Source: Escherichia coli
GTDB lineage: Bacteria > Pseudomonadota > Gammaproteobacteria > Enterobacterales > Enterobacteriaceae
DNA length: 64,000 bases
Assembly: GCF_013315695.1 (NCBI RefSeq)
Contig: NZ_CP054353.1
Strand: one strand, 5' to 3'
Position numbers: made by a program. Positions 54,788 through 57,700 of this stretch are shown in pieces (the stretch's first letter is position 1; each line of letters starts with the position of its first letter).

Positions 54788-57700
54788 TTAAACAAAAAAA
54801 CGAAGCAAGCATACGCCTGATGGCGGTCCAAAAAAAAGAGTCATCTTGCCTAAGAGTATTGGCAGGATGGTGAGATTGAGCGACAATCGAGTTACACCGT
54901 CGCTTAAAGTGACGGCATAATAATAAAAATATGAAATTCCTCTTTGACGGGCCAATAGCGATATTGGCCATTTTTTTAGCGCAACATCTGCGGCAAATTC
55001 CCTTCTCCATACAGGTGTAGTGCACCGACCGCGACCACATATCGCCCCGGCGGCATGGCGCGTAATTTATCCCGCCAGGCGAGATTTCGCTGATGCATCA
55101 GCACATCGTACAGCGACTGACTGAACGTATTGGGCAGCGTTATATCATTATTTTGCGGCGGTGCATTCAGCCACCAGCTCATCATTTGTTGCAGCAACCG
55201 TGCATTGGTGTGCCAGTGGGTCAGCGTATCGTCCAGCAGTGCCAGTCCGTTGTCAGGGAGCTGGAGCAACATGGCAATCTGGTTTTCTGCCCCTTCCAGT
55301 TCAATCACGGGTTTATGTTGTTGCTTCGCCGCCTGCAATAGCTGGTAATCGATACCGTATTCTGCCCGCAGCCCCAGTTTTTGTGCCTGCCTCGCCTGAA
55401 GAACCATCGCGATTTGCCACAGCGGTTGGGTAGAAAAGAGTGAGGTAGAAATGCCCATCTCCTGGCTAATGTGCTGCAGGTTTTGGAGTTGCTCCTCGCT
55501 AATGCGCTCTTCCAGTGCCTCGCAGGCAGGCAAATTGGCAAAAGGCGTATCGCTGGTGGAAACATCCGCCTCGACGATCAGCGCATCGGCGTTTTTGAGC
55601 TTTTTGAGCAAACGGGTGGGCAGGGGAGCCATATCGTGGCTACCCATATGAATACTGCCGAGCAGATGAAAATGGCGATTGCCGGGAAGAGAGATATCGA
55701 TAGCAGGCCAGGTGTAATGATTACCGCGCAGCGCGGCCCAAAGCGTTTTTACCCGGTACAACAGATCCATACGACCTCCCTTTGTGAAATATCATGCTAG
55801 CGCGCGGGGAGGGATGGCGCAAATGGAGTTATGAGGCTTGTTCAGTGGTAGCTTAAATATGATCGAAAAATTGTTTTTGCTTTGAAACGAAAGACTGCAC
55901 GGGTGTTGGTGGCGTCAAAATCGCCGAGGCGTTCCCTGAAGGCCGGGGCAGCCCACATGGATGTGGGCTGAGGGCGCGTTTTACAGGGATAATGAGATGG
56001 ACGCTCCAGATTTTACGGTATCAAAGTACCAGACTGGATCGTTGCAATACGTCCTGAAAAATTAGGAGCGTCCACATGAAAGTATCAACTCTTGGTATCG
56101 ACCTGGCAAAGAACGTTTTTCAGCTTCATGGTGTCGATCATGAAGGCCATACTATTTTGCGTAAAAAGCTCACCCGGGCTAAGTTTGTTCAGTTTGTGAT
56201 TCAACTGGAACCTTGTCTGATTGGCATGGAAGCCTGCTCATCCAGTCATTATTTTGCGCGATTATTCACCCGCTATGGTCATGAGGTAAAACTCATACCT
56301 CCGCAGTATGTGAAGCCTTATGTGAAAACGAACAAGACGGATGCAGCAGATGCTGAAGCAATCTGCGAAGCGGTAACCCGTCCGAATATGCGTTTTGTTC
56401 AGATAAAAACCGAAGAGCAGCAGGCCGTTTTAGCGTTACACACTGAACGGGGAATACTTATCCGTGAGCGGATTGCCTGTGCCAATAGTTTAAGAGCCAC
56501 ACTTGCTGAGTTTGGTATTACGATTGCGGCCGGACAAAGCCATTTAACACGTGAGCTGCCAGCCATTCTGGAGGATGGCGAAAATGGTTTATCTCCCTTT
56601 GTCAGAACCAGCATCTACAGACAGTCTAAACATATCCGGGAACTTGAAGAACAAGTTAAACAGGTAGAAGAAGCTCTGGCCTCCTGGTATAGAACGCAGG
56701 AAGCCTGCCAGAGAATGGCCAAGATCCCGGGGGTTGGCATGCTAACGGCCACTTATGTGGTAGCAGCAGTGGGTAATGCCCGACAATTCAGTACCGCAAA
56801 GCAGTTCGCTTCATGGCTGGGGCTGACACCAAAGGAACATTCCAGCGGCGGGAAACAGCAACTGGGAGGGATCAGCAAACGTGGAGATGGATATTTCCGA
56901 TACCTGCTGGTTCACGGCGCACGCGCACTTACCGCCTGGGTCAACCGAAACGGCGCGGTTGAGGAGAATTCCTGGCTTCAGGGACTCCTTGAGCGGAAGC
57001 ACTACAATGTAGCTGTTGTCGCCATGGCGGCAAAAACAGCGAGGATCATGTGGTCAATGTTGTCACACAATACTGAATATCAACCTCGGCAGCTCGCCTG
57101 ACACAAGGTCAGTCAATCTGACGAGGTGCTGAAAAAAAGTTAACGTCCTGGTAGGTGCAGGTGACTTCAGAAGATGGCAAAACAGGTAAGACCGCAGGCA
57201 GGATACACCGAGAGGTAACAAGGGCAAGTTAGCCCGTAGAGGATGATTGGTACCTGCCTGGCGGATTTCATCATGGTTCGGGATAAAAATCCCATCAGAA
57301 ACCGGATATATGGCTGCACCTACCCGTTTTATTACATAACTGAAGAAAGCATTGCATTCCGGGAGCGTCCATATATGTTACCTCGCGCCCGACCCGGTAG
57401 CCGCAAGGGATAAGCCGAGGGTACCGCGCAGCGGCGATTTTGTTCGCCAGAGCCCGGGGGTGCAGGGGGCGGCGGCGATTGGCCGCCCCCTGCGCGCTCC
57501 TTGCGCCAGTCACTTTATATGGCATGACTCATAAAAGGAGCGCAACAAGAACTGGATCTCACAAACGCATTAAGTAAATACCAATCACTCTTTCGGTTTA
57601 AACCTCAGCAACCGGTTGGCGTTACTCACTACGGTAATCGACGAGAGCGCCATTGCCGCTCCGGCAACCACCGGGTTAAGCAGCGTACCGGTGAACGGCC

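Follow-up and report, generated by a model that had tools for sequence, protein, structure and literature searches.

The ybaP-copA locus

This work concerns a 64,000-nt stretch of Escherichia coli DNA (contig NZ_CP054353.1 of assembly GCF_013315695.1), referred to below as the window, and within it a hairpin-rich segment (57390-57584) located between an insertion sequence (IS) of the IS110 family and the end of the copA gene. A preliminary description of the window had offered three origins for this segment: the right end of the IS, a remnant of its target, or separate foreign DNA. We conclude with high confidence that the segment is native chromosomal DNA, and that its part within 57377-57550 belongs to the right-hand half of a structured intergenic repeat of 271 nt, which in the window is interrupted by the IS.

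The window corresponds to the E. coli region ushA-ybaK-chiX-ybaP ... copA-glsA, and its ybaP-copA interval holds an IS110-family transposase gene followed by the segment. The layout of the interval is as follows (here and below a slash within a sequence marks the insertion point):

54976-55770, minus strand: ybaP
55771-55842 and 57585-57587: boundaries of the allele relative to K-12
55894-55990, plus strand: left half of the repeat (97 nt), with hairpin 1 preceded by the 5' strand of the long closing stem and followed by the 5' half of hairpin 2 as far as ACAGGGA/T; 100% match to the empty-site strain
55990-57375, plus strand: IS1111-type (IS110 family) IS of 1386 bp, delimited by the empty-site comparison and the IS1111 end rule
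57544-57550, plus strand: last seven nucleotides of the repeat, AACAAGA, where the similarity among paralogues ends
57551-57584, no strand assigned: locus-specific spacer of 34 bp between the repeat end and the copA stop codon; it matches only at the ybaP-copA locus, as paralogue matches end at query position 171
57585-60089, minus strand: copA (834 aa), its 3' end pointing towards the right end of the repeat

At the same position K-12 carries ybaQ and an array of repetitive extragenic palindromic (REP) elements. Homology to K-12 reaches from ybaP to 55842 and from copA to its stop codon, which is TGA here and TAA in K-12, the protein length being equal. The K-12 array of the ybaQ-copA spacer matches two REP-like elements located elsewhere in the window (37024-37061 and 48420-48465), and not the segment. 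The preliminary description was correct in reporting that ybaQ, present there in K-12, is missing: tblastn found none in the whole window.

Native origin of the segment

The sequence 57380-57584 was used as a query against 5426 complete E. coli genomes. It matched in 5425 of them, at a median of three places per genome; a copy covering at least 80% of the query was present in 5418/5426 genomes, and eight records contained it at full length with 100% identity. In strain 2020CK-00188 the ybaP-copA spacer is 428 bp long and contains neither the IS nor ybaQ. The empty site of this strain reads ...ACAGGGA/TGTTACC... (GTTTTACAGGGA/TGTTACCTCG) and agrees with the window at 100% identity to the left and to the right of the IS. 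Such an uninterrupted, repeat-type spacer was found in 347/5426 genomes. It is very likely that the repeat occupies the ybaP-copA spacer in a minority of E. coli (about 6-7%), where K-12 carries ybaQ and REP elements. That ybaQ is missing reflects an ordinary difference between alleles.

The alignment of 57380-57584 with ybaQ-lacking strains is end to end and 100% identical, which refutes two of the three proposed origins and leaves the remnant of the IS target, in the form of the intact right half of a structured repeat. Horizontally acquired foreign DNA that replaced ybaQ is an improbable source. The spacer is indeed a minority allele (the 347 intact spacers and a few interrupted ones among the 5426 genomes), its GC content is above the window mean and the homology to K-12 breaks off at both of its borders; however, practically all E. 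coli and also related genera harbour members of the repeat family, with paralogues of about 92% identity to the segment in 5418/5426 genomes. Moreover, a search of a phage collection for the repeat gave no match, and those matches in a plasmid collection (among them Klebsiella and Citrobacter records; mostly very large records resembling chromosomes or chromosome fragments) that were inspected or judged by record size look chromosomal. That the segment is the right end or cargo of the IS deserves practically no weight: although it abuts the IS directly and is always next to it, it is joined to the left half without any IS in 347 genomes at this locus and elsewhere in nearly all E. coli, so that the empty site already refutes this origin, and the IS does not extend beyond 57375, where its sub-terminal repeat and 3-nt extension close.

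Extent and dispersal of the repeat

With the whole empty spacer as the query, paralogues match positions 124-394, of which position 124 corresponds to 55894 in the window. The repeat unit of 271 bp comprises 55894-55990 (97 nt) and 57377-57550 (174 nt). The best match to the segment in most genomes, those of K-12 derivatives among them, is confined to query positions 1-171 (about 92% identity) and located between lysO and aqpZ, which is the position of the K-12 paralogue (U00096.3, about 915,015-915,285). Further E. coli copies are located in the yohP-dusC and yegH-asmA intervals. Up to eight places were found in an E. coli genome by megablast and seven in Enterobacter sp. ENT03, and the sensitive search of the plasmid collection gave 13 places in one Klebsiella pneumoniae and ten in one E. 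coli chromosome-sized record.

A pattern scan of species-representative genomes identified 37 loci in Escherichia species, Pseudescherichia, Pseudocitrobacter, Enterobacter, Klebsiella and Kluyvera. The genes next to the copies outside Escherichia are not those found in E. coli, and thus the family is dispersed and not syntenic. According to a crude open reading frame (ORF) caller, whose orientations agreed with the annotation at loci where annotation existed, the right-hand gene is convergent in 29/33 copies, no copy lies between divergent genes (0/28), and the usual place is just past a gene stop codon.

Copies of other lengths were also observed. A short form of about 140 bp, devoid of the central ~130 bp, lies between efeU and putP (L004, 2950-3092, from a 243-kb E. 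coli plasmid record with chromosome-like genes). It retains the 5' arm, the GC hairpin and the terminal hairpin, while the TwoAYGGAY-like core described below is gone; it resembles a deletion between two CCGGGG..CAG motifs that left the 5' arm without a pairing partner. Extended copies in Pseudescherichia vulneris (L015) and Escherichia whittamii (L040) contain an additional module of about 90 nt, nested within the repeat, which adds four small hairpins; CCCC-AGGGAT-GGGG, one of these, presents a further GGA loop. Among the loci of the pattern scan, two contigs of metagenome-assembled genomes, assigned to Desulfacinum (L014) and to 'Proteobacteria bacterium' (L023), carry copies nearly identical to those of K. 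pneumoniae and E. coli, and L023 joins fragments of yegH and copA. These are probably contaminations, or assembly chimeras formed via the repeat.

Conserved fold of the repeat

The intact repeat is predicted to fold with -153 kcal/mol on the plus strand (z = -6.7) and with -134 kcal/mol on the minus strand. From 5' to 3' it consists of a closing stem, hairpin 1, hairpin 2, a third motif (AGGGA), a 12-bp GC hairpin and a terminal hairpin. In the window these parts are:

55949-55970, plus strand: hairpin 1, CAGCCCACA-UGGA-UGUGGGCUG, with the loop A-U-GGA-U and a 9-bp helix
55972-55978, plus strand: 5' arm of hairpin 2, GGGCGCG, with its partner at 57384-57390; the loop UUUUACAGGGA/UGUUACCU is the place of IS insertion
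57377-57455, plus strand: 3' part of the TwoAYGGAY-like domain, with the 3' arm of hairpin 2 (57384-57390), AGGGA (57406-57410) and the 3' strand of the closing stem (57427-57442, to about 57455)
57462-57493, plus strand: perfect 12-bp GC hairpin, arms GCAGGGGGCGGC and GCCGCCCCCTGC, 8-nt loop GGCGAUUG
57494-57543, plus strand: terminal hairpin with a 9-bp stem, 57494-57502 GCGCTCCTT (GCGCUCCUU) pairing with 57535-57543 AAGGAGCGC

The loop of hairpin 2, when intact, reads UUUUACAGGGAUGUUACCU. The interior of the terminal hairpin (about 32 nt) varies among copies, and its stem is conserved.

Covariation was analysed in an alignment of 37 distinct copies from six genera, the tested structure being the minimum-energy fold of one member and the copies being interrelated. 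Standard pairs fill 83.9% of the cells, compared with about 40% when the partners are slid by 1-3 columns. The covariation score amounts to 0.166, the shuffles giving 0.107 and none of 500 attaining the observed value. Pairs changed on both sides number 25, versus 9-14 with slid partners; for this measure the shuffle mean is 21.4, and 25 of the 500 shuffles reached 25.

The individual helices follow the same pattern. In the closing stem (helix 2) 99.5% of the cells are paired and there are three compensatory pairs. All cells of hairpin 1 (helix 5) are paired, one A-U being replaced by G-C in 17/37 copies, and in hairpin 2 (helices 6 and 7) 98.8% are paired, with an inner A-U likewise replaced by G-C in 17/37. 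Five pairs are changed on both sides in the GC hairpin (helix 10), e.g. CGGC/GCCG to AGGA/TCCT in the copy from strain N3 (L009), and four in the terminal hairpin (helix 11). We consider it very probable that selection maintains the helices of the repeat on the plus strand.

G·U oppositions exceed A·C oppositions by 54:10 across the five solid helices, and by 43:1 when the closing stem and hairpin 2 are taken together. This excess of G·U favours the plus strand as the folding strand. It is thus the plus strand that is kept foldable, which favours an RNA as the functional form, single-stranded DNA of plus sense being less likely.

The IS1111-type element and its candidate RNA guide

Members of the IS1111 group have sub-terminal inverted repeats of 11-13 bp, extensions of 7 nt on the left and 3 nt on the right, and a long non-coding region past the transposase gene (PMC11187229). 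The IS of the window agrees with this group in the protein domains, the sub-terminal repeats, the extensions and the downstream non-coding region. Its sub-terminal inverted repeats are perfect over 11 bp (55997-56007 and 57362-57372), the left extension is TAATGAG and the right one is ATA. An AT at each junction leaves the exact cut ambiguous by two bases. There are 274 nt between the transposase stop codon and the IS end. The features of the element and of its target are:

56076-57101, plus strand: transposase gene, 341 aa; DEDD_Tnp_IS110 (PF01548, 3e-15) and Transposase_20 (PF02371, 1e-24); annotated by PGAP as 'IS110 family RNA-guided transposase'
57102-57361, plus strand: 3' non-coding region downstream of the transposase gene, the expected source of a seekRNA/bridge RNA; fold z = -2.9
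57212-57220, plus strand: candidate target guide GAGGUAACA, complementary in 9/9 positions to the top strand of the right flank
57376-57384, plus strand: right target flank TGTTACCTC, which starts at the insertion point and forms the 3' side of the loop in hairpin 2

The IS was detected in 179/5426 E. coli genomes, at 337 places, and in 173/175 genomes with a near-complete IS its right end is joined to the repeat. We inspected 16 copies of the IS from E. coli, Klebsiella aerogenes, Kluyvera and Enterobacter cloacae, 15 of which, spanning all four genera, are inserted at the same base of the repeat, in the loop of hairpin 2, and in the same orientation. The remaining copy, in E. cloacae (L060, around 1415 and 2800), occupies a look-alike site outside the repeat family, CATGGA/TGCTTGCC (...TTTTTCATGGA/TGCTTGCCTT...). 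This site resembles the usual target CAGGGA/TGTTGCCTC that fits the guide of this particular IS, and thus looks like an off-target insertion.

The chance of finding the 9-nt guide within 273 nt is estimated at about 0.001. The non-coding region of the IS is nearly invariant across genera except in and around the guide, where guides and flanks compare as follows:

E. coli and Kluyvera: guide GAGGUAACA, flank TGTTACCTC, 9/9 paired
K. aerogenes: guide GAGGUAGCA, flank CGCTGCCTC; A>G in the guide restores the pair lost to T>C in the target
E. cloacae: guide GAGGCAACA, flank TGTTACCTC (L061), one mismatch; this guide would fit the TGTTGCCTC variants of other genera

Such behaviour of guide and target is as described for seekRNA/bridge RNA (PMC11187229). 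It is highly probable that the IS chose the repeat by RNA guidance, through the 9-nt pairing with TGTTACCTC. Two observations speak against guidance of this kind: the E. cloacae copy L061 tolerates a mismatch in its guide, and a search of the non-coding region for the bottom-strand guide to the left flank that is expected in this group gave only weak candidates (CAGGAUA at 57201, GGAUG near 57243 and CGUUUUA at 57325), none of them convincing.

IS621 reportedly targets REP. The present system resembles IS621/REP and ISPpu9/REP in the site- and orientation-specific insertion inside a dispersed structured repeat with no obvious duplication, but its target is a repeat of another family. Like other IS110-family elements that target repeated palindromes, the IS combines a DEDD transposase with a non-coding RNA, here a predicted seekRNA, bearing a short complement of the target, and, as in the seekRNA/bridge RNA systems, the guide appears naturally re-programmed among relatives. 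The mechanism of seekRNA and bridge RNA has been described (PMC11187229, PMC11208160), as has the targeting of REP by ISPpu9 (PMC12288879). With regard to the identity of the element, ISEc11 was ruled out, as its target is GTGAAAATACTG, and a look-up by protein cluster recovered no ISfinder name.

The copies of the IS also differ in their genomic surroundings. In strain MS 21-1 (L005, 1-4381) the IS has dusC to its left and aqpZ to its right, and in IAI39 (L006, 1-4381) its neighbours are lysO (left) and yohP-mdtQ (right). Such reciprocal chimeric junctions indicate a large inversion between the IS/repeat copies at lysO-aqpZ and yohP-dusC; IS/repeat copies thus appear to mediate large chromosomal inversions. 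In strain N3 (L009, 785-1336) yohP is annotated twice in tandem, just to the left of the repeat with the IS.

Similarity to TwoAYGGAY RNAs

The TwoAYGGAY motif is said to have been reported by Weinberg et al. 2010. The corresponding Rfam family (RF01731), whose listed taxa include γ-Proteobacteria, has AYGGAY in both hairpin loops and shares with the repeat a long outer stem around two adjacent hairpins. The repeat differs from it in being larger (271 nt) and dispersed, with two extra 3' hairpins, a third GGA and sometimes a fourth hairpin, and in the window it is additionally split by the 1386-bp IS. One member of the repeat family, from Kluyvera genomosp. 3 (L036, 9515-9676), matches positions 1-168 of the model with 54.2 bits (E = 2e-8) and passes the curated gathering threshold of 43 bits. 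This copy, whose loop 2 is AUGGAU, can be aligned with the E. coli copies from end to end. TwoAYGGAY and CsrB share the Rfam clan CL00106, and Gardner and Eldai proposed TwoAYGGAY as a CsrA-binding small RNA (PMC4333381).

Two of the GGA motifs of the repeat lie in hairpin loops, the third is the AGGGA named above and a fourth is present in some copies. Loop 1 reads AUGGAU in 37/37 copies, which the search pattern partly fixed. Loop 2, located outside that pattern, has the form C-A-N-G-G-A-Y-G, with GGA in 37/37 copies and only N varying freely: it is AGGGAU in E. coli (G at the Y position) and AGGGAC, ACGGAC, AUGGAC (Klebsiella) or AUGGAU (Kluyvera) elsewhere. When compared in this analysis with RUACARGGAUGU, the CsrA consensus obtained by systematic evolution of ligands by exponential enrichment (SELEX), hairpin 2 (UUACAGGGAUGU) agrees at 11/12 positions. 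The repeat is like CsrB, CsrC, RsmY and RsmZ in presenting GGA in the loops of short hairpins, the two loop motifs being about 30 nt apart. CsrB carries about 20 GGA sites and differs from the repeat, which has only 3-4, is multi-copy and dispersed, and gave no promoter or terminator of its own.

Possible function of the repeat

Based on these observations, we tentatively suggest that the intact repeat may act as a plus-strand RNA, namely a CsrA-binding element of the TwoAYGGAY class. It would be transcribed by read-through from neighbouring genes, and its core would present A-N-GGA, the recognition motif of CsrA, at two hairpins and a third site. The RNA might then bind or titrate CsrA, with the two very stable 3' hairpins, which make up most of the segment, capping and stabilizing its 3' end. 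In the window the IS cuts the core, leaving its halves 1.4 kb apart, and for this reason the copy there is probably inactive.

Several findings weigh against such a function. The repeat of the window, represented by an identical IS-free allele, scores 30.2 bits with RF01731 and remains below the threshold of 43 bits; the match is of full length and on the plus strand, with E = 0.006 in a 321-nt search and 0.35 in a 19-kb search. Klebsiella copies gave no match to the model, though they are clear homologues. The repeat family thus straddles the threshold, and we therefore take the E. coli core as a diverged relative and not as a certified member of TwoAYGGAY. (With the motif split by the IS, the Rfam scan of the window itself gave no match in the segment.) The search pattern from which the alignment was seeded fixes the loop of hairpin 1 and the third motif, and hence the invariance of both is partly by construction. 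A consensus scan of both strands (L002, 3700-4300) found neither a sigma-70-like promoter nor a terminator, and so an RNA of the plus strand would need read-through or processing. In the 29/33 copies with a convergent right-hand gene, transcripts from that side carry the complement, without GGA. In published E. coli tables of CsrA cross-linking and immunoprecipitation (CLIP) and multi-omics data, which are gene-centred and without coordinates, ybjE (lysO) and dusC are marked 'No' in all four yes/no columns; such tables probably drop multi-mapping repeats and are uninformative for a multi-copy intergenic one. Finally, the IS interrupts copies in 175 genomes, and single copies must therefore be dispensable.

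It is quite possible, though short of probable, that the repeat is instead comparable to REP or to bacterial interspersed mosaic elements (BIMEs), i.e. selfish or domesticated palindromic DNA with hairpins that serve its own spread as single-stranded DNA, or a passive, very stable structure at gene 3' ends, and for the IS only a harmless landing pad. In its passive variant it would block exonucleases or read-through, and in neither variant would it have a dedicated RNA-protein function. REP and BIME elements, too, are GC-rich, form hairpins and are scattered over the genome, always at the 3' sides of genes. The repeat has several non-orthologous copies per genome, in long, short and extended forms, avoids divergent intergenic regions in favour of sites just past stop codons and gave no promoter or terminator, and K-12 has REP elements at exactly the same position. 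Targeting of REPs by IS110-family elements is known as well (PMC12288879). On the other hand, the G·U to A·C ratio of 43:1 in the core helices indicates that only the plus strand is kept foldable, the asymmetric GGA loop motif is conserved while the stems covary, and one family member passes the Rfam RNA threshold. The repeat has no sequence similarity to REP, and no candidate mobilizing enzyme was identified. It is about seven times as long as a single REP, occurs in 3-10 copies per genome versus hundreds, and has a strand-specific fold and loops. The REP-like and the CsrA-binding interpretations are not mutually exclusive.

It is very improbable that the two hairpins of the segment serve as an intrinsic or bidirectional terminator of copA. 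They start 34-90 nt past the copA stop codon and no other terminator is present, but they occur in the repeat whatever its neighbours, and neither is followed by a U-run on either strand, in contrast to the other perfect 12-bp hairpin of the window (44066-44095, ATGCCGGATGAC...GTCATCCGGCAT), which is followed by TTTTTCTTTT and is a classical intrinsic terminator. The preliminary description had likewise noted the lack of a T-run and denied the segment the character of a typical intrinsic terminator; both statements stand, as there is a single TTTT, at 57438, and a consensus scan finds no terminator-like site.

Overall, the best explanation is that the segment belongs to a native repeat which is the target of an RNA-guided IS and may be a CsrA-type RNA; we regard this as probable, a judgement weighted towards the parts that were demonstrated. 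One could further speculate, although we think it rather unlikely, that E. coli (K-12 included), Klebsiella and related bacteria carry an unannotated multi-copy family of CsrA-binding TwoAYGGAY-class RNAs, which would titrate CsrA or recruit it locally at the 3' ends of genes and so add a dispersed second layer to its control. The RNA-guided IS would then have evolved to insert exactly into one of the CsrA-type hairpins, and its spread would progressively disable the elements and reshape the Csr network.

Relation to known repeats and significance

IS110-family elements targeting dispersed palindromic repeats are already known, and TwoAYGGAY is a curated family. In the literature we found no description of a 271-nt composite enterobacterial repeat with copies in K-12, nor of this repeat as the target of the present IS1111-type element, nor of the covariation of guide and target. 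The repeat may be the one once named 'RSA' in K-12 (about 152 bp, six copies), a sparsely documented name on which literature searches yielded nothing for comparison. The identity of the repeat with BoxC was ruled out, since BoxC is a purine-rich intrastrand-triplex (PIT) element and unrelated (PMC4666352).

For the segment itself the outcome is a clarification with a moderately interesting lead attached: a false lead is removed, the segment being neither IS DNA nor an imported island. Beyond that, a natural target is defined for an uncharacterised RNA-guided IS1111-type element, and the joint change of guide and target across genera may be useful for understanding and re-programming bridge/seek RNA recombinases. 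The analysis also draws attention to a 271-nt element with a strongly conserved structure, akin to a candidate class of CsrA-binding RNAs, which is unannotated in K-12 (lysO-aqpZ), the bacterial genome studied best, and whether TwoAYGGAY-type RNAs bind CsrA would be directly testable in E. coli.

Composition of the segment and further observations

The 195-nt segment has a predicted fold of -81.9 kcal/mol (z = -3.0). The perfect 11-bp stem reported in it previously is present, its actual length being 12 bp (57462-57473 with 57482-57493). Perfect 12-bp hairpins number two in the 64-kb window, compared with 0.02 expected from block shuffles. With a GC content of 59.5% (95th percentile of 195-bp windows) the segment is GC-rich as had been stated, but the neighbouring copA reaches 58.6%. 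The claim of a high CpG density is weak: 19 CpG correspond to the 79th percentile, and the observed/expected ratio of 1.10 is below the 1.16 of the whole window, so that CpG is not enriched beyond base composition. The supposed contrast to the core genome is likewise weak in view of the GC content of copA and of the CpG ratio.

The motif GC(A/G)GCGGCGATT occurs twice, in the 3' strand of the closing stem (57428-57439) and in the loop of the GC hairpin (57469-57480). The 5' arm, AAUCGCC, could pair with either copy, which makes an alternative pairing or a pseudoknot possible; the loop variants of Klebsiella lend it no obvious support. The right end of the repeat (57535-57550; also L003, 2655-2700) reads AAGGAGCGCAACAAGA, followed by ATG in several copies. 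This arrangement of AAGGAG, 8-9 nt and ATG resembles a Shine-Dalgarno sequence with a start codon, but a small gene was rejected, as the ORFs span only 2-9 codons and lack conservation.

The gene of the small RNA ChiX (sroB; 54894-54977, plus strand) lies in the ybaK-ybaP interval, as it does in K-12, and matches the Rfam family RF00368 with 81 bits.

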